Positions 6,761-29,709 of a stretch of 29,776 nucleotides of DNA are shown one piece after another (position 1 is the stretch's first letter; each line of letters opens with the position of its first letter). Source of the stretch: Candidatus Poribacteria bacterium (GTDB taxonomy: Bacteria; Poribacteria; DTPJ01; WJIO01); NCBI GenBank assembly GCA_014730235.1, contig WJIO01000186.1, forward strand, positions 1-29,776. The letters are read 5' to 3'. Position numbers and translations under genes: made by a program. The notes under the pieces are model-generated. The model did no database searches, was not told the DNA's origin, and worked only from the letters and a program-made list of their open reading frames with translations.

Positions 6761-8656
6761 TTACCCCTTATGTTTTATACGAGTAAAATTTAAGACAGTG
6801 CCAATAACATTACTTCCGGAATTTTCTAATATCCCCTGGGTATCGTTTACATATTCTCTGTTAGTGGTATCTGCCTTTATCACAAGGATAGTAGCATCAA
6901 CTTTTGAGCCAATAGCTGCTGGGATAGCAGACGATGCCAGAGATTGGGAATCAAAAATTACTATATCGAAATTATTTGTTATATCTTCTAATATGCGATC
7001 AAAATGGGAAGATGAAAAATATGAAGAATTAGTATTGTATTCACTTCTACCTGATGTCATAACGCTTAATCCATCTGTTTCTGTTAAAGTAATTGCATCA
7101 TCCCAATCTGAATTTCCCTCCAGAATATCAAATAATCCCTGTTTCTGGTCTAATTCCATAATCCTGTCTACATCCGGTGTTTTATTATCAGAATCAATCA
7201 GTAATACCTTAAGATCTGACAAAGCAAAGCACAATGCCAGATTTGCAGAAACTGAGGTTTTACCTTCACCGTCCAGAGAACTTGTGACAAGTAAAGTTAA
7301 ACCTTTTGACTTATTCTTTAATATTTCAATTTTTGCCGTTGTTTCTAAATATAGCATATCATAGGAGTTTTTGTAAAGATCATTGAGCTTTCCGGGGGGT
7401 ATTTTATTGATAATTGTTTCTTTTATTTCATGGTGGTTTCTTAGCCTGGGGATAACTCCCAGAACAGGCAGATTCAAAGATTCAGCTAGTGATTTTGGGT
7501 CATGAATTGTTTTATCTGTAAATATTTTAAAGAAGGCAAGAGTTAATCCTAAAAATCCACCGGCCAGAATACTTGCGGCAAATATTATTTTTCTTTTAGG
7601 TTTGCTGGGATATAAAGGTTCTGCCGCTTCTTCTATGATCTCAGTGGTGTTTCGCTGCATTATATGTTGGGCCTTTAACTCTTCGTGCTTTGTTACAAGA
7701 AGACTGTAAACCTGTTGATTAAAAACCACCTCAGCCGCCAATTCAGTCAGACCAAATTGCTTATTATATTTCTCAAAGGCCTTTTCCTCTTCTTCTTTAA
7801 GCCTTTCTCTGGTTTCCTTCAATTGGGCTTTTAAATTTACGACTTTTGGATCACTAGGAGGGTAACTTTTTTTTAACACATCCAGTTCTATTTCCAATTC
7901 CATTACAGCCGATCTGAGCTTTGCAATGGTCTGGGGTACTTCCGGAATCATAAACTTAGAACTATCGCCGCCTATTTGATTTCCCGCACCTATTAATAAA
8001 GGACTAAAAGCAGTTGGGATACCCTCACCTGTTTCATTTTGGTACAGCCGGTTTCTTGAATCTACCAGTTCACCCTTTACTTCCTTAAGTTTATTTTCCA
8101 TTTGTGTGATTAATTCATTCCAGGCTTTTTGTTGAGATTTATTGGCAAAATCTATATACTCAATGGCAACCTGGTCTGTAATTTCTTTTGCTTCCTTGGG
8201 TGTATCCCCTGCCGCTGATATATCTATTAAATTTGTCCTTCCTCTTTGTCTAACTTCAAGGTTTTCCTGAAATTTATTTATAATCATCCGCATGTCCATA
8301 TCGGTGTTTTTTGGCTTCTTATCCAGCCCGAGCTCCTTTATTACCTTTTCTGATATAGTTCTGCTTTTGATTATTTCCACTTCTGTGGTAACATCCCCGG
8401 CCTGTCCGATAGGTAAAAACGCCCCAAGGGCAGCAGCCAACCCACCTCCGGATTGTGTTGGAATCTTTATGACCGCTTTGGATGTATATTGTCTTGGTGT
8501 AACCAGGAGAAATATCAGGGTTGCACTTACAACAATCCCAAAAGGTATAATGATTAACCACTTTCTCCTTAACAATTCGTTCCAATATTCACTTAATCGG
8601 ATTTCCTTTTCTCCAGTATATTCAGGCATTTGACCTGATGGAGATGGTGATTTCAT
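6761..8656 (-). CDS. wzc: Wzc/ExoP-like polysaccharide co-polymerase: an N-terminal Wzz chain-length domain fused to a C-terminal BY-kinase/CapB-like P-loop ATPase. It lacks the C-terminal tyrosine cluster.
   Basis: 631 aa. It has an N-terminal TM segment, a long coiled-coil periplasmic region, then a second TM segment. Walker A is LLVTSSLDGEGKTSVSANLA and Walker A' is VLLIDSD. The C-terminus ...VLNFTRIKHKG has no Tyr-rich tail. Confidence 0.8.
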   Translation of the reverse strand: MKSPSPSGQMPEYTGEKEIRLSEYWNELLRRKWLIIIPFGIVVSATLIFLLVTPRQYTSKAVIKIPTQSGGGLAAALGAFLPIGQAGDVTTEVEIIKSRTISEKVIKELGLDKKPKNTDMDMRMIINKFQENLEVRQRGRTNLIDISAAGDTPKEAKEITDQVAIEYIDFANKSQQKAWNELITQMENKLKEVKGELVDSRNRLYQNETGEGIPTAFSPLLIGAGNQIGGDSSKFMIPEVPQTIAKLRSAVMELEIELDVLKKSYPPSDPKVVNLKAQLKETRERLKEEEEKAFEKYNKQFGLTELAAEVVFNQQVYSLLVTKHEELKAQHIMQRNTTEIIEEAAEPLYPSKPKRKIIFAASILAGGFLGLTLAFFKIFTDKTIHDPKSLAESLNLPVLGVIPRLRNHHEIKETIINKIPPGKLNDLYKNSYDMLYLETTAKIEILKNKSKGLTLLVTSSLDGEGKTSVSANLALCFALSDLKVLLIDSDNKTPDVDRIMELDQKQGLFDILEGNSDWDDAITLTETDGLSVMTSGRSEYNTNSSYFSSSHFDRILEDITNNFDIVIFDSQSLASSAIPAAIGSKVDATILVIKADTTNREYVNDTQGILENSGSNVIGTVLNFTRIKHKG

Positions 8657-10088: not shown

Positions 10089-10248
10089 GTAATTGTTAAA
10101 AAATAGATGGCTCTTCCGGGTTCAGTGTGTTAAAGATAAGAAACTTCTTTATGCTGTCATTCCTGCTTTCGCAGGAATAACAAATTCTGTAGTTAAGCAT
10201 AGAATAAAGCGATTGTTATAAACATAAATTACATTTTTTAACGATTAC
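10089..10248. repeat. ~160-bp intergenic element with terminal inverted repeats (GTAATTGTTAAAAAAT / ATTTTTTAACGATTAC) centred on an ATTCCT-N8-AGGAAT palindrome. It is MITE-like or a regulatory module. Copy 1 of 2.
   Basis: The arms at 10089-10104 and 10233-10248 are 15/16 reverse-complementary. The palindrome at 10159-10178 (ATTCCTGCTTTCGCAGGAAT) is equidistant from both arms, about 64 bp each. A related element is at 26221-26432. Confidence 0.6.
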
Positions 10249-10396
10249 ATTATCAGACTTAACTCTGAAGAAACAAATTTTTTCGTTATATCTCGTTAAA
10301 ATTTTCATTCATTTGGTCAAAAAAAGTAAGCTATATTTAATGCTTATTCGTTATGATTACAAATGAAAACTACATGAATAAAAGGCTTGAAAAGCA

Positions 10397-17106: not shown

Positions 17107-19245
17107 TTATCTCTCTATGGCTTTCATTGCAGCCTGGAAGTGTTCCATATTAATCTTTATCTGTGTATAATCTTTCTCCTGTTCATCTTTGCTTTTCTGG
17201 ATAAATTCCCGGATGGCTATCATTGCCGCCCGTCTGCATACAAATTCTATATCAGCACCTACCCGGTCATCTGTCATTTTAGCCAACTCATCATAATTAA
17301 TGTCATCAGCCAGTGGTTTTTCCCTTGTATGAACTTTGAATATCTCCAAACGGGTTTTTTCGTCAGGTTTTGGCATCTCCATAACCAGATCGAGACGTCC
17401 AGGTCTTAAGAGGGCTTCATCAATGAGATCACGACGGTTAGTGGCTGCAAGCACCACAACACCCCGAAGTTCCTCGATGCCGTCCATCTCAGTTAAAAGC
17501 TGGCTTATTACACGTTCTGAGACATGGGAATCGGATGCTCCGGAACGCGGTGGAGCGATGGCGTCCAGTTCATCCAGAAATAATACGCAGGGGCTGGATT
17601 GTCTTGCTTTCTGGAAAACCTCTCTTATTCCTTTTTCAGATTCGCCGACCCACTTTGAGATTAACTCAGGTCCTTTGATTGATATGAAATTTGCTTGACT
17701 CTCGGTGGCAACTGCCTTGGCCAGCAGTGTTTTTCCTGTTCCCGGCGCGCCGTGAATTAAAACACCTTTTGTTGGTGATATGTTGGCATATTTGAATGCA
17801 TCCGCGTATTTCATAGGCCATTCGACAGCTTCCTGGAGTTCCTGCTTGATCTCCTCAAGGCCACCCACATCCTCCCAATGCACATTGGGTACTTCGGTAA
17901 ATACTTCCCTGATGCCCGATGGTTCTATTTCGTTGAGGGCATCCATGAAATTATCCATGGTAACGTTAAGATCATTCAGAATTTCATAAGGGATGGAATC
18001 TATATCAAAATCTATTTTAGGGATAATTGTTCTAAGGGCTGTCATAGCTGCTTCCCGACTTAAAGCCTCTAAATCTGCTCCTGTATAACCATGAGTTATC
18101 TCAGCCATTTTATCCAGGTCAATATCATCAAACAAAGGCATTCCACGTGTGTGAATTTCCAGGATTTGTAATCTAGCCGGGGCATCGGGTATACCAATAA
18201 CGATCTCCCGGTCAAAGCGTCCTGGGCGGCGCAGGGCTGGATCAATCATGTTAGGTAGATTTGTTGCTCCAACTACTACAATCTGTCCCCGGTCTTTCAG
18301 ACCGTCCAGAAGGGCCAAAAGCTGTGCTACAACGCGTTTTTCTACATCTCCTACTACTTTTTCCCGCTTTGGAGCTATGGAATCTATTTCATCCAGAAAT
18401 ATAATGCTGGGTGCTTTTTGCTTTGCCTGTTCAAATATTTCCCTTAGCTGTCTTTCACTCTCACCATAAAACTTATGTATTACCTCTGGGCCACTTATAG
18501 AAAAGAAAGCTGCATCAGTTTCGTTAGCCACAGCCCGGGCTAGCAGTGTTTTACCACATCCGGGAGGTCCATGAAGCAAAACACCCTTGGGCGGCTCAAT
18601 CCCTAATTTCTGGAACAACTGGGGATGCCTTAAAGGTAATTCTATCATCTCCCGAACTCTTTGTATGGCTTTATCCAAACCACCAATGTCTTCATATGCA
18701 ATACCAGCTTTATTTTGTCCTCCTTCTCTTTGACCTTCTATATTAATTCTTGTATCAGGATGAATAAGGACTATATCATCAGGGGATGTTTTTGACACAA
18801 TAAATTCCTGGAACCTGGAACCAAAGAGGGTGGCTCTGACTACATCACCGGATACTACAGGTAAATCATTAAGTAGTTTGCCCACATATTTTGTGTCCCG
18901 TTGTTGTGAAAAACGGGTTTTCCCGGAAGCCTGAGTGAGATATATTAGCTTTGCTGGTTGGGCTGAAACTGGAGACAGTTTGACCTTTTCACCGATTCCT
19001 GTATCGGCATTACGACGGGTAAGGCCGTCAATCTGAATGATTTCTTTACCTCGATCATCAGGATACGCAGGCATTACCTTAGCGACTGTCATTCGTTTAC
19101 CCCGAATACTGATAATATCCCCTACAGAAACGTCAAGTTTTTTCATATCTTCGGGATCCATCCGGGCAAGACCTTTACCTGCATCCCGATTTAATCCTTC
19201 TGATACTTTAAGATTAATCGTATTTGGCTCTGTTCCTGCACCCAT
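17107..19245 (-). CDS. Cdc48/VAT/p97-type double-ring AAA+ ATPase (N-domain + D1 + D2), last gene of the gvp-linked operon
   Basis: 712 aa. The Cdc48-N domain is [41 protein letters not shown]1 Walker A is [20 protein letters not shown] with DEID Walker B. D2 Walker A is [20 protein letters not shown] with DELD Walker B. Both SRH regions are present. It is TAAATG-coupled to the upstream 189-aa ORF. The SD is AGGAG. Confidence 0.9.
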
Positions 19246-19815
19246 TTAATGATTCTCCTTTAGATTTTTTACCGATTTATAGATCTTGATGTCGTCAACC
19301 AATTTATCAGTCACTTTATGAAGAGCTCCCATAAACAAAAGGCCAGTTTCACCATCCTTCAGAGTCGAGTCAATCCTACAGGCTATATATTCATCCCGGC
19401 GTTTCATCAGATCGTCGTATTTGTTTGTTGAACCAACTACTCCCATGTTCTTAAGTCTTTCCCTTTCCTCTAGCAGTAGCTCTGATGCTTCTGTTCCAAC
19501 TATTGATGCTCCTTTTTGGATTAACTCCAGCAGTAGCTTATAATTTCTGTTGCCATCTTCTGCAAGGGCCTGGACTATTTTAAGTTCCTGATTACATACA
19601 GGTAGACTGTCCTGATAGATTTTTGCTTTTTTGTAATTAATAGGTAAATTGAGCAGTGTATTCCTGATTTCTGTCCAGAAATTTTCAACAGCCTTTATAT
19701 GTTCTTCCCATTTAGATTCACCATATCTAGCTGTGTATTGTTTTCTGGCTTCGGATAAATGGTTTCCCAGGTCTTCAGGTGTATGAACAATAGGTATATA
19801 AAGCAATTCTCGCAT
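19246..19815 (-). CDS. Hypothetical 189-aa protein between the last gvpF/L and cdc48-like. It is translationally coupled on both sides, with no family recognised.
   Basis: The start is 2 nt after the gvpF/L stop and is preceded by GGAG. The stop abuts the cdc48 ATG. The protein is predicted alpha-helical and soluble (MRELLYIPIVHTPEDLGNHLSEARKQYTARYGESKWEEHIKAVENFWTEI...). Confidence 0.5.
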   Translation of the reverse strand: MRELLYIPIVHTPEDLGNHLSEARKQYTARYGESKWEEHIKAVENFWTEIRNTLLNLPINYKKAKIYQDSLPVCNQELKIVQALAEDGNRNYKLLLELIQKGASIVGTEASELLLEERERLKNMGVVGSTNKYDDLMKRRDEYIACRIDSTLKDGETGLLFMGALHKVTDKLVDDIKIYKSVKNLKENH

Positions 19816-19817
19816 TT

Positions 19818-20537
19818 TTACTCCAAGCCTTTCCAGAGATTTATATTTGCAAAAGTATAAGGAGGCCAGGGGCCTGAATAAAGCAAACGCAGGTCTGGAT
19901 TATTATTCCTGAACTGCTGGTAAGAGTATTTAAAGGATTCCAATTGATCCTGTTCGATCAGATAGCATATATTCCTGATAAGCATCCTTTTTATAATTTT
20001 AACGCTGGAGATAACTTCAGAACTATGGGGAATAAGGATTTTATCCAGCTTCTGTTTCAAATCTCCCGATATATCCTTTAATTTTTTTATATTGTCGTGT
20101 TTACGTTTTTTATTCATCAGGTAATTCATGCCATTTTGAATTTTTACTTCTTTATTATCTCTGGATTTTATATCTATGTTTTTAATATCAAATAAAATCT
20201 TTATACTGATTTCTGCTTTACCCTCAAGTTTTGACAGGTATTCATTCAGTATTTTCATATTTTCTTTTAAAAATATTATTATATCCTCAATATCCGGGAA
20301 AAAGGTGGCAAAGCGACATGGTATTATAGATTGAGATTGCTTAAAAATAATATCCACAACTTTCTGATGATTAATAACGTTGGTATTGTTAGCATCCAAA
20401 CTGCGAGAATCAATTTCACTAAAGAAAACCGATATATCACCCAAAGTTACAATTCGGATTCTTGAGTTGCAAATACCCGTAGATAGATCTTTTGGCATTA
20501 TTGTATTATTTTTGGTTAAACAATAAACATATTTCAA
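19818..20537 (-). CDS. gvpF: GvpL/GvpF-family gas vesicle protein (paralogue 4)
   Basis: 239 aa. N-terminus is MKYVYCLTKNN. The C-terminal family signature is LLYSGPWPPYTFANINL. Confidence 0.8.
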   Translation of the reverse strand: MKYVYCLTKNNTIMPKDLSTGICNSRIRIVTLGDISVFFSEIDSRSLDANNTNVINHQKVVDIIFKQSQSIIPCRFATFFPDIEDIIIFLKENMKILNEYLSKLEGKAEISIKILFDIKNIDIKSRDNKEVKIQNGMNYLMNKKRKHDNIKKLKDISGDLKQKLDKILIPHSSEVISSVKIIKRMLIRNICYLIEQDQLESFKYSYQQFRNNNPDLRLLYSGPWPPYTFANINLWKGLE

Positions 20538-20542
20538 GATTT

Positions 20543-21379
20543 TTATTCTTCTTTAAAAACATTGAATTCAGGACAGAAATTATAACACGGCCAAGGACCA
20601 CTTAACTCGAATAATATAAGGCTTGGTTTATGTCTAAGGGCAAGTTTATCCAAGTTTTTTTTGAAATTATCAAAAGATTTCTTATCAATCAAAAAAGCAG
20701 AATTAAGTATCATATCCATATTTTTTCCCGTTGCATTTCTGCCAAGAAGTTTATTTCTACATCCTGCTATGCACCAGGATGATATAGTCTTATATATTGA
20801 ATTAGAAAGATTTTTCAGGTAATTGGTGCGGAATTTGCTGATTAAGCTCTCCCGCTTTTTTTTCAATAGATATGCTTTGCCCGGTGGCATATGGGCAATA
20901 CGTTTATCCAGATCCACAATTTCTTTGCTTGATTTAGCTATTTCCTCTGAACCAGCGTCATTTTCAGCATATACCTTTATTCCCCATTCCTCTTTTCCAT
21001 CAACAACGTCAAAATAATCATTAAATTCCTTGAATCCCTTAACCAGTATATCAATGATTTTCTTGCTATCAGAATAGATAGTGCCAAAACGCATAGGGAT
21101 AATACTGTGATTCTCCATTGCTGTTCTTATTATTTTTTCATGGGTTCTTACTCTTGGAGTTAACCACTCAATGTTCTGAAGGGATTTTTCCAGTGCGTCT
21201 TCGTTATATTTATCTCTGGAAACTGAACTTACCAGAGCACCGAGGTTTTGGTGAGATAAAAAAAAGGTTTTATTTTGCCTATCTATTCCTGGATTTGATT
21301 CTATATCCGGTATACCCCTGAAAATACAATAAAGGTAAAAATTATTATTCTGGTCTAATCCTGATTCTTCTGCTTCCAC
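20543..21379 (-). CDS. gvpL: GvpL/GvpF-family gas vesicle protein (paralogue 3)
   Basis: 278 aa. Contains FYLYCIFRG and the C-terminal ELSGPWPCYNFCPE signature. Confidence 0.8.
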   Translation of the reverse strand: MEAEESGLDQNNNFYLYCIFRGIPDIESNPGIDRQNKTFFLSHQNLGALVSSVSRDKYNEDALEKSLQNIEWLTPRVRTHEKIIRTAMENHSIIPMRFGTIYSDSKKIIDILVKGFKEFNDYFDVVDGKEEWGIKVYAENDAGSEEIAKSSKEIVDLDKRIAHMPPGKAYLLKKKRESLISKFRTNYLKNLSNSIYKTISSWCIAGCRNKLLGRNATGKNMDMILNSAFLIDKKSFDNFKKNLDKLALRHKPSLILFELSGPWPCYNFCPEFNVFKEE

Positions 21380-21888
21380 AATTTAATCTCCACTATACCA
21401 TTTCTGTTTGAGTATTTAGTTTTTTCTTCATCAACAGGAGCGGAAAGTAGTATTTCCTTGTAATATTTTCGCTCTTTTTTTTCACCTGATAGTATAAGTA
21501 TATCTCCTTTAATTTCGTATTTTATTTCAGTTTCTGATACTCCAGGCATTTCAGCGATTACCAGTATATAATCACCTTCATCAAAAATATCCACCATAGG
21601 TTCCCGAATTTCATCAACTATCGGTCCTTGTTTTTTTTCTTTAACATTACCAAATTGTTGAACAGTAGCTTTTCCACCAGTTCCAAATTTCACAGAAACG
21701 CCGTATACGGCTTTCAAGTCTTTATCATCACCGATTACCCCTTCTTTTTTTATACTTTCGGATTTTTCGGCTAATTCACTTGCCAGATCGATCAGGGAAC
21801 CAAGACCTTTAAACAAACCTCCTAATCCTATATCAATATTTATGTTGCCTTTGACGTTATCCTTTTTATCATCTTTACCCATTACCAA
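21355..21888 (-). CDS. gvpH: Hsp20/alpha-crystallin-domain protein (GvpH-like)
   Basis: 177 aa. The ACD-like core is VDIFDEGDYILVIAEMPGVSETEIKYEIKGDILILSGEKK...NGIVEIKLWK. The N-terminal region is glycine/lysine-rich. It overlaps the downstream gvpF/L by 25 nt. The SD is GGAGG. Confidence 0.7.
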   Translation of the reverse strand: MVMGKDDKKDNVKGNINIDIGLGGLFKGLGSLIDLASELAEKSESIKKEGVIGDDKDLKAVYGVSVKFGTGGKATVQQFGNVKEKKQGPIVDEIREPMVDIFDEGDYILVIAEMPGVSETEIKYEIKGDILILSGEKKERKYYKEILLSAPVDEEKTKYSNRNGIVEIKLWKQKNQD

Positions 21889-22008: not shown

Positions 22009-22347
22009 TTAACTGGTTTTTTCTAATTCAGATATACGTTTTTTAAGAGCTTCTATTTCAGCTTCTTTATCTTCAAGTTGGTGTGCTTTTACTTCTTGTT
22101 CCAACCTTTGTTTGCGTTCCGCCATAGCACTTAAAAACGGATTACCTTCCCACCAATCTATACCCATCTCTTTGGCCCTTTCCACTGATGCCAGAAGCAA
22201 TCTAATATTGATTGTCAAAAGCTCAACTTCCAGAAGCTTAATACGGATATCGCCAGCAATAACAACGCCCTTATCCAATACTCTCTCAAGGATTTCCACC
22301 AGGTTATTTGCGTTGGTGGAATGAACAATTTGTTCTTGGTGTCCCAC
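22009..22347 (-). CDS. gvpJ: GvpJ (GvpA-family gas vesicle protein with extended coiled-coil C-terminus)
   Basis: 112 aa. The core LVEILERVLDKGVVIAGDIRIKLLEVELLTINIRLLLASVERAKEMGIDWW matches the GvpA/J/M fold. Confidence 0.85.
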   Translation of the reverse strand: MGHQEQIVHSTNANNLVEILERVLDKGVVIAGDIRIKLLEVELLTINIRLLLASVERAKEMGIDWWEGNPFLSAMAERKQRLEQEVKAHQLEDKEAEIEALKKRISELEKTS

Positions 22348-22361
22348 AGACCCATTCCCCT

Positions 22362-22691
22362 CTAATCAAGTAAATTTCCTAAAGGTCCTAAATCAATGTT
22401 TAGCTCTTCTATTTCAAAATATTCTTTCAACTCAATAATTTTTTCCTCTAACTTCATAAGAGTAGTACCGAGTCGCTCAATTTCTTCATCAGTTAGAGTT
22501 CCGCCTTCTATTCTTCTAATAGCCTGTTTTTCCAGCAACTGCCTGATAAGCTCTACCAGAGCCAGAACCAACTTTACAAGTCCTTGTTCTACTCCCTCTG
22601 GATCTACCTTCACCTTTGTAGGCTTTTTAACTGGTTCAAGGTTATTCGCAAAATCATCCAGGAATTTTGATGTTATCTCAGGTCGATTCAC
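22362..22691 (-). CDS. gvpK: GvpK gas vesicle protein
   Basis: 109 aa. LVKLVLALVELIRQLLEKQAIRRIEGGTLTDEEIERLGTTLMKLEEKIIELKEYF matches the conserved GvpK core. Confidence 0.85.
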   Translation of the reverse strand: MNRPEITSKFLDDFANNLEPVKKPTKVKVDPEGVEQGLVKLVLALVELIRQLLEKQAIRRIEGGTLTDEEIERLGTTLMKLEEKIIELKEYFEIEELNIDLGPLGNLLD

Positions 22692-22930: not shown

Positions 22931-23242
22931 TTACTCAACAATTTCCTCAAGATCCATTCTTTTACGCATGCTGCGGCGTTCATAATTAATAACATCACCA
23001 TCTTCGTCAAGTTCAACTTCGTATATACCCAATACATCCAGTGTATCAGGTATTGCTTTTCTCTCTATAAATTCAATGGTGATATTCCAACCATCTTCAG
23101 TTCTTGATGCTCCAACCACACTTGAAAGCTCCAATCCTATTAGCATTTGGAGTTGTTCAACAGCGTTGTTTATTGCATCCTTCAGTTTTAGACGAACCGT
23201 TTTATTCTCATGTAAGGTATTTATTTCTTCAATCTCAGCCAT
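22931..23242 (-). CDS. gvpO: GvpO-like gas vesicle synthesis protein
   Basis: 103 aa. Size, position and the ...LSSVVGASRTEDGWNITIEFIERKAIPDTLDVLGIYEVELDEDGDVINYER pattern resemble GvpO (PF05800). The call rests on recall, not a search. Confidence 0.55.
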   Translation of the reverse strand: MAEIEEINTLHENKTVRLKLKDAINNAVEQLQMLIGLELSSVVGASRTEDGWNITIEFIERKAIPDTLDVLGIYEVELDEDGDVINYERRSMRKRMDLEEIVE

Positions 23243-23296: not shown

Positions 23297-23920
23297 TTAA
23301 TCCGATGACAGATCAATTAACTCCAGTTCTAATTTTTTTCTACCAAAAACCAATGCTTCTTTTACGGTAGGCATGAGTAAATCAATATTTCTACCATTGT
23401 TTTTTTTCATGGCTGATCCTGTATCACATGCAAAAAAGTACCTGTTAATTTCCGGAGCATACAGGACAGAACCATATGGAATAACACCGGGATCAACAGC
23501 AGCAACACCCATACCTGCCGGAATGAGGTTAGATGTCAATCCATCGTTAAATGGAACGCAGCTATCTTTGGGATCATAGGCAGTAACATTAAAATAACCT
23601 AAAGATTTCCGTTTTCCCTTTTTGGATAAAGTAGATATAGCTGCACGATATGCCTTTATTTCACCTTTAAGGAGTGATGATTTTATAGCGTATTCATTTA
23701 TCATCTCTTTTAGTCTTGTATGTTCCTGAGTCATTTGTGTTTGGTAATCATGGCTAACCCGCATGTATGTAAACAGGCATGATAATCCCATTGCGGTAAA
23801 AATAGCAAATGACAATACACCAAAGTAGACAAACAATTTAGCACCTTGTTTCTTAAATATATCTTTTATAAGAGAATAAGCCCTACCTGTATAAGAAGAA
23901 TTACAGGCTAACGTTTCCAT
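23297..23920 (-). CDS. Membrane-anchored 3D-domain protein (MltA/YorM-like double-psi beta-barrel, probable peptidoglycan-binding or lytic domain) embedded in the gvp operon
   Basis: 207 aa. One N-terminal TM segment (LFVYFGVLSFAIFTAMGLSCLF) and a coiled linker precede the 3D domain TAYDPKDSCVPFNDGLTSN...GVAAVDPGVIPYGSVLY...FACDTGSAMKKNNGRNIDLLMPT, which carries the conserved Asp residues. Confidence 0.6.
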   Translation of the reverse strand: METLACNSSYTGRAYSLIKDIFKKQGAKLFVYFGVLSFAIFTAMGLSCLFTYMRVSHDYQTQMTQEHTRLKEMINEYAIKSSLLKGEIKAYRAAISTLSKKGKRKSLGYFNVTAYDPKDSCVPFNDGLTSNLIPAGMGVAAVDPGVIPYGSVLYAPEINRYFFACDTGSAMKKNNGRNIDLLMPTVKEALVFGRKKLELELIDLSSD

Positions 23921-23924
23921 CGCC

Positions 23925-24161
23925 TTAACCTCCGCCTTTTTGAGCAGCTATCTCTTCCAAAATATCCACAAGCTCTTCTTCTTTTTCTTCAAATTCCTCT
24001 TCGCTGATTTCACCTTTTTCCAATTGTAAATAAAGATTTCTTAAATCTTCTCTTATCTTATCTTCATTAAAAAGCTCTTCTTTTGCCATTTCGTCAATTT
24101 TCTTAGCTATAAATACCGGTAATTTTATTGGTGCCAGTAAAATATTATCAAGAATACCCAT
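23925..24161 (-). CDS. gvpG: GvpG gas vesicle protein
   Basis: 78 aa. MGILDNILLAPIKLPVFIAKKIDEMAKEELFNEDKIREDLRNLYLQLEKGEISEEEFEEKEEEL matches the GvpG pattern (MFLLDDLL...A...ELYD...I...L..L...E.GEISE.E). Confidence 0.7.
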   Translation of the reverse strand: MGILDNILLAPIKLPVFIAKKIDEMAKEELFNEDKIREDLRNLYLQLEKGEISEEEFEEKEEELVDILEEIAAQKGGG

Positions 24162-24166
24162 GACTA

Positions 24167-24952
24167 CTACCTTTCGAGATGCAATTCCAGTCTGTCAACA
24201 AAACTGAATGGAGGCCAGGGACCGTCAAGTTTGAGGGAATACTCATTTCCCATATTTTCGCCTAGTCTATCAATGGCCTTTTCCAGATCAGAACGCATGT
24301 CTTTTTCAATTAGCAAAGTTGCATTAGTTATTGTTGAATCATTGTTTATTTCTTCAACCCGGGCTTCTCCCGGAGGAAGATGGGTTAAAATATCATTGGT
24401 TATCTGTTCTCTGGTTTTTTCCATTCTCTTGTGGAAATAAGTACCAAAATCAATAATTTCCTTACGTCCCAGGGATTTACCCTCGCCCATGTATTTATCC
24501 CGAATGGATCTGAGTTTATCATCCCTGTCAATGAAATACTTAAACACATCATCAACATTCCATTCAACCTTTAATCCCATTTCAACTTTGTTCTTAAGTC
24601 TTTCAAGCTCCTGTCGAATAGTTTGGTAACTTTTACGCAGAGCAATATTAACCTCACCTGCATCTCTAGCTATCTGACCGAATCTGGCAGGAATTGTGGT
24701 AAAAAGCTCTGATGCCTTGCGTATCACTTCATGGTATGGAGCCAGATTTTTCCTGAGAAGTTTAATGGAATCAACACGAGGATAATCACTTACCAGAGCA
24801 CCAATATCTTCATAATGAATGCTATGGACAACTTTATTATCCAGACCTATAGGACCGAAGTTACTTTCCTGATCTGAAAGAATAACAGCGTAAAACAATT
24901 TTCCATAATGGGAGCTTCCGTTATTTACTTTTCTTGTAACTCGCTTTCTCAT
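24167..24952 (-). CDS. gvpF: GvpL/GvpF-family gas vesicle protein (paralogue 2)
   Basis: 261 aa. The C-terminal signature is [13 protein letters not shown]. It has a 4-nt ATGA overlap with the upstream gene. Confidence 0.8.
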
Positions 24953-25986
24953 CGGATCAATAACCTCTCTGCAATAAAAACTTTTTCAACTTCATCTCTT
25001 GAGAACGAAAAAACAGCATTTTTTCCATCTTCAAGAGAACTGCTATAACTATGACAATATGACTCTAAAATTTTATAGGCTTCGTCTATTTCTTTAAAAA
25101 GCTTATATGATTCCTTGTCTCCATCCGTTTTGTCAGGATGGTATTTCAACGCAAGTCTTCGATAGGATGCCTTAATATCATCCAGATGTGCTTTTTCCGG
25201 GAGTTCCAGCCTTCTACGGGCTTTATCAATTAATTCATAATTGCCTTTTTTGAATTCAAGTGGTGCAAAACTATAGGGAGGAATTGGGCCAATATATTTA
25301 AAACTGAGGTAAGATTCATTTTCATTACCAAGTTCCTCCATAGCCTTATCGAATTCTGCTTCATCCTGTCTATTGATGAGATAGCTCCTGTTAAAAATAA
25401 TTGAGTCATCGGCTGATCTACCTTCTGATGAATCAATAGATACATTGGATAATTTGTCGTGAATAGAATCAATAATCTGGCGTTTTAGTTTTTCTGCTGA
25501 CTGGAACAGTAGTTTACCAAGCTGAATTTTATCATTAATGTCAATAGATTTCACAGCCTCTTTAAGCCAGTTTTCATCTTTACTTATATTCTGTAAAACT
25601 GTATCCAGATCCCAGAAAAGCTGAACTGCAAATTCAGCTTTATTGCGAAGGTTATTCAGTGCCCATTTAATATGTATGTAGGAATTGGCCATGAATTCCT
25701 CAACCTGTTCTTCCTGATCCACCATAATTCCAAATCTAAGCGGGAGTATAGTGAGGTTTTGGAATATATTTATATTTATCTGTTGGTAAGATGCAAGAAG
25801 GACTTTAAGTTCAGCTTCATGCATTCCGGGCTGTTCAGCAATAGCAGGATCTATTTTTCTGGTGATAGTTGTAAGATCTTTATAATTTATGCTATGTATC
25901 GTCTCAGGAATGGAAATATATTCATTTTCAAATTTGGTAGTTTCAACGATACAATGAAGCAAGAATGTATTTAATTTTTCTGTCAT
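24949..25986 (-). CDS. GvpL/GvpF-family protein fused to a C-terminal DnaJ J-domain (paralogue 1)
   Basis: 345 aa. The GvpF/L core ends at the signature [16 protein letters not shown] canonical J-domain follows: [59 protein letters not shown], with the HPD tripeptide present. Confidence 0.8.
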
Positions 25987-26132
25987 AATAGGTTAACCTT
26001 TCCAGCAAATTTACAGATCAGTATTTAATTGTAAACTACTATAATTATATATAAAAGGGTGTGACATACTTACGTCACTTTAGTCCTGGTATTTTGTATT
26101 TTGAAATTTAGTCGGGTAAATACAAAAGATTC

Positions 26133-26153
26133 GGGCACGAAAATTTCGTGCCC
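26133..26153. other. Strong perfect hairpin (GGGCACGAAA-A-TTTCGTGCCC) in the gvp internal intergenic region. Possible minus-strand terminator for the gvpC-N-orf107-orf94 unit, or a protein-binding site.
   Basis: Seen directly. On the minus strand it is followed by GAAUCUUUUGUAUUU. Confidence 0.35.
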
Positions 26154-26220
26154 ATTAAAAATGATTGCTTTTGTTAACCTATTTTGTTATGAAATCGCTA
26201 AAAATAAAGATATGTTTACT

Positions 26221-26432
26221 GTAATCGTTAAAAAATGAAAAATGTATTTAGAAAATACTTTTATGATGATGGTAAATTACAAAATTTGTCATTCCTGCGA
26301 AACTCTTATTCCTTTTTACTCAAGCCTTTTCAAAAAGCTTGAAGCAGGAGTCCAGAAAAAACTTATCCAGAAAGACCGGATTCCTGCTTTTGCAGGATGA
26401 CATCATGAATGATATTCATTTCTAACGATTAC
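26221..26432. repeat. ~212-bp element, copy 2 of the TIR-bounded element. It has outer inverted arms GTAATCGTTAAAAAATG / TAACGATTAC and inner inverted arms GTCATTCCTGC / GCAGGATGAC, and includes an ATTCCT-N8-AGGAT palindrome (26380-26399).
   Basis: The outer arms at 26221-26237 and 26423-26432 are 10/10 reverse-complementary, extended to about 19/23. The inner arms are at 26288-26298 and 26392-26401. The left arm plus the GTCATTCCTGC spacing (about 55 bp) parallels copy 1 at 10089-10166. Confidence 0.6.
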
Positions 26433-26434
26433 TG

Positions 26435-26719
26435 TTACTGTTTTAAGATTATTAGTTTTCTATTCCCAATTGTATTTGTAAACCTGACATTTACAACATC
26501 ATTGGGTTTTAGATCCATAAATGACAGCAAGTTATCTGGAATAACAAGTCTATTTGATGAATCCAAACGGGCTAATCCTCTTATAATACCTATAGACCTT
26601 GAAATATTACCATTCAGTTTATGATGACGATTATTAAAACACCTTATATACCTGAAATGTTTTATTTTGCCCGATGTTTTTATATTTCGTCTTGTTTTAA
26701 GTTTAATAATATTTCGCAT
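26435..26719 (-). CDS. Small protein with a C-terminal AbrB/MazE/SpoVT-like swapped-hairpin DNA-binding domain. The start codon is uncertain.
   Basis: The C-terminal 50 aa SIGIIRGLARLDSSNRLVIPDNLLSFMDLKPNDVVNVRFTNTIGNRKLIILKQ aligns by eye to the AbrB N-domain (GIVRKVDELGRVVIPIELRRTLGIAEKDALEIYVDDEKIILKK). The basic N-terminal 40 aa may be a mis-called extension. There are 3 nt between the upstream ORF stop and its start. Confidence 0.45.
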   Translation of the reverse strand: MRNIIKLKTRRNIKTSGKIKHFRYIRCFNNRHHKLNGNISRSIGIIRGLARLDSSNRLVIPDNLLSFMDLKPNDVVNVRFTNTIGNRKLIILKQ

Positions 26720-26722
26720 AGC

Positions 26723-27046
26723 TTAATATTTTAAAATAACCTCAGCCTTTTTTTCTGATTCATTATCTTTTGCGTTTTGATTTTGTTTATTTATTTTTTC
26801 TCGAACGCCCAGTCTCTCCATAAGTTCATTTTCTTCCTCATCAATTTCTTCCAGGCGTTTTGAGATCCTGTCTATTCTTTTTTCCCAGTTATTTTTTTCC
26901 TTGTTTAGTCTCTGTCTTTCACGACCAAGACCAGCCAGTTCGTTGTAAATATCATATTCATCATAGTGATTCCGCATCCGCAAAGCAGTTTTAATGCGTT
27001 TTGTGGTATTAGGAATATCTCTTATTCCTCTTATTCTTCTTTCCAT
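26723..27046 (-). CDS. Hypothetical 107-aa charged coiled-coil protein downstream of gvpN
   Basis: The ORF has operon context only. Its sequence is MERRIRGIRDIPNTTKRIKTALRMRNHYDEYDIYNELAGLGRERQRLNKEKNNWEKRIDRISKRLEEIDEEENELMERLG... I recognise no family. Confidence 0.4.
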   Translation of the reverse strand: MERRIRGIRDIPNTTKRIKTALRMRNHYDEYDIYNELAGLGRERQRLNKEKNNWEKRIDRISKRLEEIDEEENELMERLGVREKINKQNQNAKDNESEKKAEVILKY

Positions 27047-27171
27047 AACTATCTTCGGCGATTAATTATCCCTGAATTCTTTGAAATCCTGGGTAGGAAT
27101 AGCCGTCATCCCCCTTTCAAGAATATAATGAGTATTTTTGATAAAATGTCGAAGCCTTAAACTACCGGGAA

Positions 27172-28053
27172 TTATCCAATTATATTTTCAATTGCTTTCT
27201 TTACCTGACCACTGGTATCTGAACCTTTACATATAACATCCAGACATGTTTCAATGAAAACCCTATCATCAGTTTTCACTTTGACTTCCTGCTTATTAAC
27301 AATATCGGCAATCATGATTGATGCTCTGATAGTGGGGTCAAAACTTATATCCTGGTTTTCCCTTATATGCCTGACAAGTTCCACTATTTTATTTGATTCT
27401 TTTTCAGGCATACCTGATTTTGCCGATGTAATAGCAGCTTCAGTTTGGGCATCATAACATCCCAGGTTAATGGTAATCATTCTATCCAGTAAAGCGCTCT
27501 GAGGAGTATAAACCCCCGCATATTCATCAGGATTACTGGTGAATATAGCCCGGAATTCCGAATGAATATTGATGTAACTTTCACCGTATCTGCTTTCCGG
27601 TAATACCAGGAGTCTTTCTTCCAAAGCCGACAAAAGAACATTGTTAGCTTCTGCCCTAGAACGGGAAAATTCATCATAAACGAGTGTATATCCATTTTTG
27701 CATGCTGTGGTTAGTCTTTGATCAACCCAGACATTGGATACATTTTCCTCAGTTTTTACAACAGAATGAACAAAGTTGTCCACCAGACGTTTTGAAACAA
27801 TACCCTTATCATTACCCAGTAGATCTGAAGAACCAAATTCTTCATCGCCATATATAATCATCACCGGGCGACCAATTACACCAGCCAGGTGCATAGCTAA
27901 AGTGGTTTTACCCGTCCCTGCAGGGCCGCTAAGATGGACAGGGTAACCAGCTTTTAGATATGCCAAACAGCGCCGACATATACTCTTTATTAACGGAGTA
28001 ACAACGAAATCCTTTCCCGGTTCAAGACGAAGAACAGTCGCCTGTTGTGCCAT
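27172..28053 (-). CDS. gvpN: GvpN (MoxR/CbbQ/NirQ-type AAA+ ATPase of gas vesicle clusters)
   Basis: 293 aa. Walker A is VHLSGPAGTGKTTLAMHLAG and Walker B is LVYDEFSRS. It follows the gvpC-like gene. Confidence 0.9.
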   Translation of the reverse strand: MAQQATVLRLEPGKDFVVTPLIKSICRRCLAYLKAGYPVHLSGPAGTGKTTLAMHLAGVIGRPVMIIYGDEEFGSSDLLGNDKGIVSKRLVDNFVHSVVKTEENVSNVWVDQRLTTACKNGYTLVYDEFSRSRAEANNVLLSALEERLLVLPESRYGESYINIHSEFRAIFTSNPDEYAGVYTPQSALLDRMITINLGCYDAQTEAAITSAKSGMPEKESNKIVELVRHIRENQDISFDPTIRASIMIADIVNKQEVKVKTDDRVFIETCLDVICKGSDTSGQVKKAIENIIG

Positions 28054-28081: not shown

Positions 28082-29242
28082 TTAACTCTTTGGATAATAA
28101 AGATTATCAATTTTTTCGACTTTATTTTCATCAACTAAAGGTTTTATAACAGATATAAGGCCTCTCCAATCAACACCCATTTCATTTCCAATATCAACCA
28201 GCTTAATGCCTTCAGGATGTTTACCAATCATTTCCAGAACCTGATCTTCTGTGGAAATATTTTCTTCCTCTTCTTTTTCAGGTGAAGCTTCTTCAGAAGT
28301 CGGTTCTTCGACTTCATCCTGCGGGGTTTCAGGAGAAGGTTCCTCATCCTCATATTCTTCCTCTTCCGATTCAGTTTTTGAAGGTGGTTCTTCAACTTCA
28401 TCATCTTCGGAGGAATCTTCCTGATCTAAAGCCTCTTCGATAACGGTAGTTGTTTCCGTCGTTTCTACCACAGAGGAAAACAATTCTATCCATATATCCC
28501 TTGCTTCTTTTCTGTCAGAAGCTATGCTATTTAGCATTTCATTTATGGCTTTGCTTCGGGCTTCTTCATCAGCAGAAACCTTTTCTCTCAGATTCTTGGA
28601 CATTTCCTGAATATCAGATCTGACACCTTTCATGAATGAATCAACCTCATCTATGAGGCTTTTGGCAGCTTCTTTTCGGGCTTTCTCATCTGAGGCCATC
28701 TTTTCCTGTAAGGCCCTGGATGTCTCTGCCATTTCCGATTTCATATCATCCATAAAGGATTTTACCTCATCCCTGAGCTGATTAACTGCATCGCTTCTTT
28801 GTTTTCTATCGGAAGCAATTTTTTCTTCCAGGGATTTGGACATTTGCTGTAGATCTGATTTTATACTTTCTTTGAAGTTTTTAACTTCGTCCATCAACTG
28901 TTTTGTTGCCTCACTTCGGGCAGCTTTATCGCTGGCCATTTTATCCTGAAGTTCTTTTGACATATCCTGAAGGTCATTTCTGACTTCATCCAGGAATACC
29001 TTAACGTTATCCATAAGCTCTTTTGAAGCCTTCATACGACTTGCTTTATCTTCGGATATCTTATCAGCCAGAGCTTTGGACATATCCTGACGCTCTAATT
29101 GGAAACGTTCTATGAGGTTATGAGTATCAGATTTCATCTCACTGACTTTGACGTGACGATCCTCGGTGGAGGCCCTACGGTTTTCAGCAGATGCTTTTAT
29201 ATCCTCTACCAGATTCCGCATTCCATTACTCAATTCACCCAT
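28082..29242 (-). CDS. gvpC: GvpC-like repetitive gas-vesicle surface (scaffold) protein candidate: about 6 tandem 40-41-aa amphipathic repeats, an acidic E/D/S/P-rich linker and a ~55-aa C-terminal globular tail
   Basis: 386 aa. Repeats such as DMSKELQDKMASDKAARSEATKQLMDEVKNFKESIKSDLQ, QMSKSLEEKIASDRKQRSDAVNQLRDEVKSFMDDMKSEMAE and TSRALQEKMASDEKARKEAAKSLIDEVDSFMKGVRSDIQE have the same period. Its position between gvpA and gvpN matches the canonical gvpA-gvpC-gvpN order. Confidence 0.6.
   Translation of the reverse strand: MGELSNGMRNLVEDIKASAENRRASTEDRHVKVSEMKSDTHNLIERFQLERQDMSKALADKISEDKASRMKASKELMDNVKVFLDEVRNDLQDMSKELQDKMASDKAARSEATKQLMDEVKNFKESIKSDLQQMSKSLEEKIASDRKQRSDAVNQLRDEVKSFMDDMKSEMAETSRALQEKMASDEKARKEAAKSLIDEVDSFMKGVRSDIQEMSKNLREKVSADEEARSKAINEMLNSIASDRKEARDIWIELFSSVVETTETTTVIEEALDQEDSSEDDEVEEPPSKTESEEEEYEDEEPSPETPQDEVEEPTSEEASPEKEEEENISTEDQVLEMIGKHPEGIKLVDIGNEMGVDWRGLISVIKPLVDENKVEKIDNLYYPKS
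28460..29215. repeat. Intragenic tandem DNA repeats of ~120-123 bp encoding the 40-41-aa GvpC-like repeats
   Basis: Periodicity is seen at the protein level, and at the DNA level as recurring ...GACATnTCCTG...TTTnAnnTCATC... blocks. Confidence 0.65.
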
Positions 29243-29392
29243 GAAAGCAACCTCCTATTATAAAATATTATAAAAAAACACATATTCAGAAAATTATTTA
29301 AAAGGCCAATTATTTATCCGAATATATAGTCAAATTTTAATTTATTAAACCGTTTTAGCTGATTGCTGAATCAGCTTAATGCTTTACTATTA

Positions 29393-29413
29393 AAAATCCC
29401 TCGTTTCGGGATA
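29393..29413 (-). terminator. Weak hairpin plus U-tract ~80 nt downstream of gvpA on the minus-strand transcript. Candidate attenuator between gvpA and gvpC-like.
   Basis: On the minus strand: AUCCC-GAAACGA-GGGAU followed by UUUUUAAU. A second 7-bp hairpin CTTCCGG...CCGGAAG lies just upstream, at 29421-29447 on the plus strand. Confidence 0.3.
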
Positions 29414-29490
29414 TTTGATCTTCCGGATGAAGTCATCACCCGGAAGAATCAAAGGGATCTGACGAATCAGAAGTTTTTTGGTAGGATTAT

Positions 29491-29709
29491 TTATGCAGGA
29501 ACAGCGGCGGTAGCGGTTAGACCAACGGCTTCTGCATATTTCAGGTATGTGTCAACTGAGGCAACTACGACGCGAGCTTCAACAGCCAGTATTTCGATAC
29601 CGACCAATGATACTCTTGCCCAAGCATCTACCACAATACCTTTGTCAAGAATGCGATCTACAACTTCTGCCAAACTACTTGAATCCATTGTCTTCTGTAC
29701 TGAAGCCAT
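29491..29709 (-). CDS. gvpA: GvpA, major gas vesicle structural protein
   Basis: 72 aa. [52 protein letters not shown] is near-identical to the canonical GvpA core. A perfect SD GGAGG (rc of 29719-29723) lies 9 nt upstream of the ATG. Confidence 0.95.

Follow-up and report, generated by a model that had tools for sequence, protein, structure and literature searches.

A gas-vesicle (gvp) gene cluster occupies the minus strand of contig WJIO01000186.1 of Candidatus Poribacteria bacterium (assembly GCA_014730235.1), running from position 29709 to position 17107 of the 29,776 nucleotides (nt) that were analyzed here and that we call the window. Between gvpN and a gene in which gvpF/L is fused to a DnaJ J-domain (gvpF/L::DnaJ) lie two small open reading frames (ORFs), orf107 and orf94, followed by a structured spacer. 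An earlier note, made from the sequence alone, had pointed to two small ORFs located 3 nt apart after gvpN, and their coordinates and strand are as claimed: orf107 starts 125 nt downstream of gvpN, and the gap between orf107 and orf94 covers positions 26720 to 26722. The families represented by orf107 and orf94 are here designated orfX and orfY, respectively. The elements of the region are as follows.

26723-27046, minus strand: orf107, the orfX of the window, 107 amino acids (aa), matched by the family hidden Markov model (HMM); NCBI hypothetical protein GF312_08915
26720-26722, minus strand: orfX-orf94 spacer of 3 nt, read from the sequence
26435-26719, minus strand: orf94, the orfY of the window, 94 aa as read
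26591-26719, minus strand: N-terminal extension of orf94, residues 1 to 43, from alignments with homologues
26435-26590, minus strand: predicted AbrB/SpoVT-type swapped-hairpin domain of orf94, residues 44 to 94 plus the stop codon, GIIRGLARLDSSNRLVIPDNLLSFMDLKPNDVVNVRFTNTIGNRKLIILKQ, from the orfY HMM, a PDB profile search, and hhalign
25987-26434, minus strand: structured spacer between orfY and gvpF/L::DnaJ, from a repeat search, a terminator scan, and RNA folding

Related loci were taken from the contigs of eight close GvpN relatives (62% to 78% identity) and from an orfY-seeded metagenome scan, which gave 17; 27 were fetched in total. In all eight contigs of the GvpN relatives, gvpN is followed by a gene of 104 to 126 aa, a small gene (called at 59 to 114 aa), and gvpF/L::DnaJ. 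An orfY gene is present in 27 of the 27 related loci, which belong to Omnitrophota, Aerophobetes, and other uncultivated lineages. Gas-vesicle neighbors are recognizable in 24 of them, and there the order gvpN, orfX (~105 aa), an optional zinc-ribbon gene, orfY (55 to 65 aa), and gvpF/L::DnaJ holds wherever the contig reaches. The optional gene, seen in loci L007 (7108 to 7500) and L009 (1987 to 2307) and lacking in the window, encodes a DnaJ-type CXXCXGXG zinc-ribbon protein of 106 to 130 aa. The exceptions are L018 and L019, which show no gvpN, orfX, or gvpF/L, and L015, which shows the downstream neighbor only. A GvpA/J-like gene stands downstream of orfY in L018 (1040 to 1555) in place of gvpF/L::DnaJ, and this may be a variant gene order.

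Both ORFs were recognized by HMMs from which the window sequences had been excluded. Among 442 six-frame ORFs of the window, the HMM of 19 orfY homologues gave orf94 a score of 47.9 bits (E=1.8e-14) over residues 44 to 94, with the runner-up at 3 bits and no other ORF above that value; the family signal belongs to the minus-strand ORF and not to the overlapping plus-strand ORF at 26409 to 26624. The HMM of 16 orfX homologues matched orf107 from end to end with 101 bits (E=7e-31). Homologues of orfY start with ATG and have a GGAGG-type ribosome-binding site, and their ratios of nonsynonymous to synonymous substitution rates (dN/dS) are 0.11 to 0.23 wherever dS exceeds 0.6; by this measure, orfY is under purifying selection among its homologues. 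Since the window-free HMMs score both ORFs and the synteny is conserved, orf94 and orf107 are not chance ORFs. The comparisons show that orfX and orfY are real protein-coding genes and that, in Poribacteria, Omnitrophota, Aerophobetes, and other metagenomic lineages, the pair forms a conserved two-gene module located between gvpN and gvpF/L::DnaJ.

The homologues held by NCBI are named "hypothetical protein." A word-indexed homologue search with orf94 gave no match, and a HMMER scan of 1.84 billion representatives returned two giant repeat proteins only, in which a 27-residue motif was matched repeatedly and which we rejected as spurious. True homologues were missed in the latter scan because an identity of 29% to 41% over 50 residues is insignificant at such a library size. 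Genome-contig scans with GvpN and with an orfX alignment found no relative, and a plasmid tblastn search found nothing matching orfX or orfY.

Fold of the orfY product

With orf94 alone as the query, Pfam returned MraZ at E=0.22 (cutoff, 23 bits) and PF04014 was unmatched. A phmmer search of the PDB retrieved Mycoplasma MraZ chains, with best-domain i-Evalues of ~0.016 to 0.02, beside motif-level matches to plant leucine-rich-repeat receptors; the motif L.L..N.L.IP thus lacks specificity when taken alone. The profile of a 20-sequence orfY alignment, in turn, matched 14 PDB sequences at E<=1, and all 14 are swapped-hairpin proteins: PhS018 (6.7e-6), AbrB (9e-4), and then Abh, MraZ, SpoVT, and Sulfolobus AbrB, a picture that was the same with a 9-sequence profile. 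PF04014 was matched by eight of nine orfY members (best E=1.4e-4) and the AbrB family model TIGR01439 by four of nine (best E=7.5e-8). When the 20-sequence profile was compared with the AbrB N-domain by hhalign, residues 51 to 93 of orf94 fell on AbrB residues 9 to 47 with a probability of 93.7%; the first 39 residues of the AbrB sequence used agree with the PDB chain. The resemblance of the orf94 C terminus to AbrB that had been proposed earlier is therefore upheld at the profile level, where the PDB matches are swapped-hairpin proteins only, but not by orf94 alone, which stays below threshold; the swapped-hairpin domain itself is borne out at the family level by the profile searches. These searches support, for the family as a whole, placing orfY in the AbrB/SpoVT superfamily (looped-hinge-helix, swapped-hairpin) as a strongly basic protein of minimal size with a single domain.

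The N-domains of the Bacillus transition-state regulators AbrB, Abh, and SpoVT resemble the orfY domain of ~50 residues, which has the signature xDxxG(R/K)hxhPxxh(R)xxhxL...D.hEh...K.hhxK. In the HMMER alignment, the arginine of the family LIR motif (R47 in orf94) is placed on AbrB R8 and the K/R of EG(K/R) (R57 in orf94) on AbrB R15; R8 and R15, together with R23 and R24, are arginines through which AbrB binds DNA. All orfY members are strongly basic, with isoelectric points (pI) of 9.8 to 11.9, and this, together with the retained equivalents of R8 and R15, is consistent with nucleic acid binding. A single-sequence AlphaFold2 (AF2) model of orf94 has the order strand-strand-helix-strand-strand (strands at residues 43 to 52, 57 to 60, 75 to 80, and 89 to 93 and a helix at 62 to 67) expected of the superfamily, but at a mean predicted local distance difference test (pLDDT) value of only 59. 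AbrB is ~94 aa long and forms tetramers through a C-terminal oligomerization domain. In contrast, orfY encodes the domain alone (55 to 65 aa), with no C-terminal multimerization or sensor domain, and the 94-aa length of orf94 results from an N-terminal, not a C-terminal, extension, a basic tail of ~40 residues in the window copy. Further differences from AbrB are a 3-residue insertion after the first arginine, variable equivalents of R23 and R24, invariant residues that are particular to orfY (a DS pair and the N of PxN), and its location in gas-vesicle clusters of non-Firmicutes.

In the single-sequence PDB search, orf94 matched Mycoplasma MraZ best, and the MraZ motif LDSANRILIPNNL resembles LDSSNRLVIPDNL of orf94. 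Like AbrB, MraZ belongs to this superfamily; it is small, binds DNA, and is encoded at the head of the operon that it represses (dcw), a position that recalls that of orfY just before gvpF/L. However, MraZ has two tandem domains (~150 aa) and assembles into rings on repeated boxes, whereas orfY has one copy of the domain and no dcw context, and the Pfam MraZ model reached E=0.027 at best in the orfY family. Membership of orfY in MraZ was rejected on account of the single domain, the gvp context, and the sub-cutoff Pfam score. The archaeal PhS018 (PDB 2glw), the top PDB profile match of orfY, and the minimal AbrB proteins of the Sulfolobus Sso7c4 type are barrel-only proteins, as orfY is predicted to be. 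PhS018 differs in being a single chain with two hairpin halves, and the proteins of both types are archaeal, with poorly defined functions and no known link to gas vesicles.

Swapped-hairpin domains also occur in antitoxins, and orfY could be the antitoxin of a type II toxin-antitoxin pair (MazE, VapB, or PrlF type) that is in the cluster by chance. Individual members do show weak matches to PF04014 (named MazE_antitoxin), to PrlF, and to a MazE NCBIfam model. Nevertheless, hhalign against E. coli MazE gave a probability of 8.7%, compared with 93.7% for the AbrB N-domain; orfY has no C-terminal toxin-binding extension; and instead of a toxin gene, the neighbors in every locus are orfX, the zinc-ribbon gene, or gvpF/L, a gvp linkage that is strict across phyla. 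The gene context and the MazE comparison effectively refute this explanation, which we consider highly improbable.

Translation start of orf94 and the adjoining spacer

Homologues of orfY start ~6 residues before the domain. Their methionine aligns with S40 of orf94 (TCA), and at that position the window has no ATG, GTG, or TTG. The sole canonical start of orf94 is the ATG at 26719, 3 nt past the orfX stop codon (TAA); the nearest GAGG is 20 nt upstream of it, compared with 6 to 11 nt for the Shine-Dalgarno sites found before most genes of the contig. Residues 1 to 43, which correspond to the orfX-orfY spacer of the homologues, contain 13 lysines or arginines and no aspartate or glutamate (pI 12). 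The frame of this extension is open in just 1.3% of composition-matched shuffles, and the other two frames hold 4 to 6 stops. In comparison with the family, the 94-aa reading is atypical, its first ~40 residues being a predicted window-specific extension. We favor coupled translation from 26719 because the only canonical start is there, the 3-nt geometry is that of coupling, and the frame is so seldom open in shuffles. The orfY of the window would have lost the family start codon; its translation probably begins, by coupling, at the ATG at 26719, which would add a very basic N-terminal tail of ~40 residues. Alternatively, a noncanonical internal start may be used, or expression may have been lost.

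The last possibility amounts to orf94 being a decaying or untranslated copy of an otherwise real family gene, one that has been deprived of its own start codon and ribosome-binding site. Besides the missing start, decay would account for the local GC content of ~0.30, similar to that of the adjacent spacer, and for the lack of an NCBI annotation. It is also true that orf94 is the most divergent orfY member (29% to 41% identity to the others), with the conserved VEL changed to VNV and an asparagine in place of a loop glycine, but the orfX of the window is similarly divergent (24% to 43% identity to its relatives), so that this distance reflects the lineage and not decay. Moreover, the 51-residue domain is intact, without a stop or a frameshift, and still scores 48 bits, the upstream frame of ~40 codons has remained open, and the ATG 3 nt past the orfX stop has the classic geometry of coupling. 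Decay of orf94 therefore appears quite unlikely to us.

The spacer that follows orf94 is about 447 to 454 nt long. The nested inverted repeats reported earlier beside the end of orf94 are real, with arms at 26218 to 26234 and 26419 to 26435 around inner palindromes. As RNA, the spacer folds with z=-8.5 relative to shuffles, and its minus strand has three terminator-like hairpins, against 0.6 expected, at 26381 to 26365, 26154 to 26132 (the strongest), and 26078 to 26061. Pieces of the spacer, namely, TTTTTTAACGATTACA and a TCCTGC...GCAGGA hairpin, recur in the intergenic region at 10089 to 10251, which suggests a family of repeats in this genome resembling repetitive extragenic palindromic sequences or miniature inverted-repeat transposable elements (REP/MITE-like). 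The orfY-gvpF/L spacers of the relatives are mostly 53 to 157 nt long and unrelated to that of the window. Because its pieces recur in the contig and the repeats are not conserved in the relatives, we read the spacer as a REP/MITE-like insert with terminator-like hairpins and not as a dedicated binding site; it probably comprises the end of a gvpA-C-N-X-Y transcription unit and the insert. In L001, the corresponding spacer (7631 to 8114) contains tandem ~75-nt copies built on CCCCCTTAAAAAAGGGGG palindromes, a different insert, so that the site has expanded independently there. A search of Rfam with positions 25800 to 27300 gave no match.

Two regulatory readings of the spacer were rejected. 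The inverted repeats as an operator for the orfY product are unsupported, being neither conserved in relatives nor confined to this spacer. A sigma54 promoter at the palindrome at 26133 to 26153 lacks the -12 GC (TTTC) and has a match count at chance level, and the T-run after the palindrome on the minus strand is like that of a terminator.

A sigma54-type -24/-12 element, [T/A]GGCA[CT]-N5-TTGCT, is found 53 to 304 nt upstream of gvpA in eight of the nine related loci with coverage of that region (L001, 4001 to 4016; L003, 4868; L005, 4329; L007, 3646; L008, 2745; L010, 2701; L021, 18; and L025, 1304). Genes for a histidine kinase, a sigma54-dependent response regulator, and a CheY-like regulator also lie upstream of gvpA in relatives and are GvrABC-like. 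Only 67 nt of the window lie upstream of gvpA, and the region corresponding to these regulators and promoters is outside it. No -24/-12 element precedes orfY or gvpF/L in the loci scanned, so the accessory-gene unit needs some other control.

The orfX product and the surrounding gvp genes

The orf107 product is 100% identical to the NCBI hypothetical protein GF312_08915. Its AF2 model is one long helix, residues 12 to 106, with a mean pLDDT of 87, in line with the coiled coil proposed earlier. Searches of Pfam and NCBIfam with orfX gave no family and only coiled-coil noise, and the model and the searches together identify orfX as a predicted long-helix protein of ~105 aa that belongs to no described family. 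Its conserved features are a KGLxxIP-type motif (RGIRDIP in orf107) within a basic segment at the N terminus, a heptad-like core, NELAxLxxEKxRLxKExxxWQERI, and a C-terminal end of the form RE(V/M)x(V/I/L)(K/R)Y (AEVILKY in orf107). In the window, and in each of the related loci with coverage here, this gene comes right after gvpN. The earlier note had regarded both ORFs as candidate gvp regulators. For orfY this is a plausible suggestion, but for orfX it is unlikely: because orf107 has no DNA-binding features and its place right after gvpN is constant, orfX is more plausibly a GvpN-linked assembly factor than a regulator.

In Serratia sp. ATCC 39006, the small gene gvpV lies between gvpN and gvpF1, immediately after gvpN, and mutants in either gvpN or gvpV arrest at small bicones (PMC4982088). 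The likeness of orfX to GvpV is one of position, and neither Pfam nor NCBIfam has a GvpV model that matches orfX; GvpV homologues have been reported from only five proteobacteria, and no orfY-like gene has been described beside gvpV. In a review, GvpV-Z appear only as proteins that are specific to bacteria and have no known function.

The other genes of the cluster are listed below in the order of transcription.

29491-29709, minus strand: gvpA
28082-29242, minus strand: GvpC-like repeat protein
27172-28053, minus strand: gvpN, AAA+ ATPase (TIGR02640, E=2e-103)
24949-25986, minus strand: gvpF/L fused to a DnaJ J-domain (PF06386, E=7e-39, and PF00226, E=4e-15)
24167-24952, minus strand: gvpF
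23925-24161, minus strand: gvpG
23297-23920, minus strand: 3D-domain protein (PF06725)
22931-23242, minus strand: gvpO (PF05800)
22362-22691, minus strand: gvpK (PF05121)
22009-22347, minus strand: GvpA/J-like protein (PF00741)
21355-21888, minus strand: Hsp20-like protein (PF00011, E=7.4e-4, under the curated cutoff)
20543-21379 and 19818-20537, minus strand: two more gvpF/L genes (PF06386)
19246-19815, minus strand: 189-aa protein without a Pfam match
17107-19245, minus strand: Cdc48-type double AAA+ ATPase, 712 aa (CDC48_N and two AAA domains), the last gene of the cluster

The cluster is unusually rich in chaperones, with a Cdc48/VCP-type ATPase, an Hsp20-like protein, and the GvpF/L::DnaJ fusion, and it also has the 3D-domain protein. 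At its other end, the GvpC-like protein (28082 to 29242) closes, in its C-terminal ~55 residues, with an acidic linker and then a compact domain, VLEMIGKHPEGIKLVDIGNEMGVDWRGLISVIKPLVDENKVEKIDNLYYPKS. Across the loci, no part is better conserved than this domain (59% to 72% identity), which has no Pfam match and looks winged-helix-like by eye only. The spacer between gvpA and the GvpC-like gene (29243 to 29490, minus strand) contains a hairpin and then a T-run, ATCCCGAAACGAGGGATTTTT, resembling an attenuating terminator after gvpA.

Candidate roles of the module

The explanation toward which we lean, if only modestly, is that orfX and orfY form a conserved module in which orfY is a DNA-binding gvp regulator and orfX a GvpN-linked coiled coil, with orf94 started by coupling. 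The regulatory role of orfY is suggested by its fold family. The orfY product would dimerize into a swapped-hairpin barrel, bind DNA, and, as a small transcription factor, adjust gvp expression. Its most plausible target would be the gvpF/L accessory-gene unit that follows orfY or, alternatively, its own unit, and it would act beside the sigma54 and two-component control that relatives show at the gvpA promoter. The orfX product would form a coiled coil and work with the AAA+ protein GvpN in vesicle growth, as a positional analogue of Serratia GvpV.

The known regulators GvpD and GvpE of haloarchaea and GvrA, GvrB, and GvrC of Serratia are similar in being encoded in or beside the gvp cluster. 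That they are unrelated to orf107 and orf94, as claimed earlier, was confirmed, no domain being common to them: neither a GvpD P-loop nor a GvpE bZIP-like, sigma54 activator, histidine kinase, or receiver domain was found in orfX, orfY, or their relatives with Pfam and NCBIfam. The orfY product would accordingly be an additional regulator of a different type. A literature search on gas vesicles with AbrB or SpoVT found no paper linking the swapped-hairpin fold to gvp clusters.

Several observations weigh against this explanation. The orf94 protein is absent from a collection of 15 billion proteins and its gene was not called by NCBI, its ATG has no Shine-Dalgarno site at the normal distance (5 to 12 nt), and orf94 alone reaches no curated Pfam or NCBIfam threshold. 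The AF2 model of orf94 is poor, and Foldseek found nothing in the PDB at E<=0.001. The equivalents of AbrB R23 and R24 are not conserved, being R in about half of the orfY members and L65 and S66 in orf94, and N56 of orf94 replaces a nearly invariant loop glycine. Comparison of the spacers beside orfY across the loci revealed no common motif and no DNA target, and the inverted repeats of the window are lineage specific. Finally, orfY sits among assembly and chaperone genes, which leaves room for a non-DNA role.

Such a role could be that of a protein-binding barrel serving as an adaptor or cochaperone in vesicle assembly, together with orfX, the AAA+ protein GvpN, and the J-domain GvpF/L. The embedding of orfY in a structural and accessory operon, constantly just before gvpF/L::DnaJ, speaks for an adaptor, as do the chaperone-like neighbors (the J-domain fusion, the Hsp20-like protein, the Cdc48-type ATPase, and, in some relatives, the DnaJ-type zinc-ribbon protein). 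So do weak matches of four of nine members to UFD1_N1, which is a protein-binding barrel of the related cradle-loop type, along with the variable R23/R24 equivalents and the lack of an operator in the orfY-adjacent spacers. On the other hand, the family is uniformly very basic, the bare domain offers no additional surface for a partner, and the characterized swapped-hairpin proteins retrieved by the profile bind DNA via this domain; to our knowledge, this is so for every characterized protein among AbrB, Abh, SpoVT, MraZ, and Sulfolobus AbrB. On balance, we judge the adaptor role to be rather unlikely. We also consider unlikely a more elaborate form, in which orfX and orfY are a dedicated assembly module: as a protein or peptide adaptor, the orfY barrel would join the coiled-coil orfX in connecting GvpA, during vesicle growth, with the AAA+ protein GvpN, which lacks an N-domain, and with the J-domain GvpF/L. 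The model for this adaptor is provided by the Cdc48/VAT ATPases, whose N-terminal cradle-loop barrels are related to the predicted barrel of orfY. Such a module, if real, would put the AbrB fold to a new use in organelle building, one that does not involve DNA.

Gas-vesicle clusters are being mined for use as acoustic reporter genes. Little is known of their regulation and accessory genes outside haloarchaea, cyanobacteria, Bacillus, and Serratia. The orfX/orfY module is conserved across several uncultivated phyla, and public annotation has it as "hypothetical" or, in the case of orf94, not at all. From the comparisons above, orfY emerges as a subfamily that is new and unannotated, linked to gvp genes, and built on a well-known DNA-binding fold, and orfX as a new predicted coiled-coil family; as the fold is already well known, the advance lies in context and annotation and not in mechanism. 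Should orfX be the counterpart of GvpV, the GvpN/GvpV growth step would reach well beyond proteobacteria. If the orfY product binds DNA, it would add a third type to the gvp regulators, beside GvpD/E and GvrA/B/C, and would offer a compact handle on accessory-gene expression.

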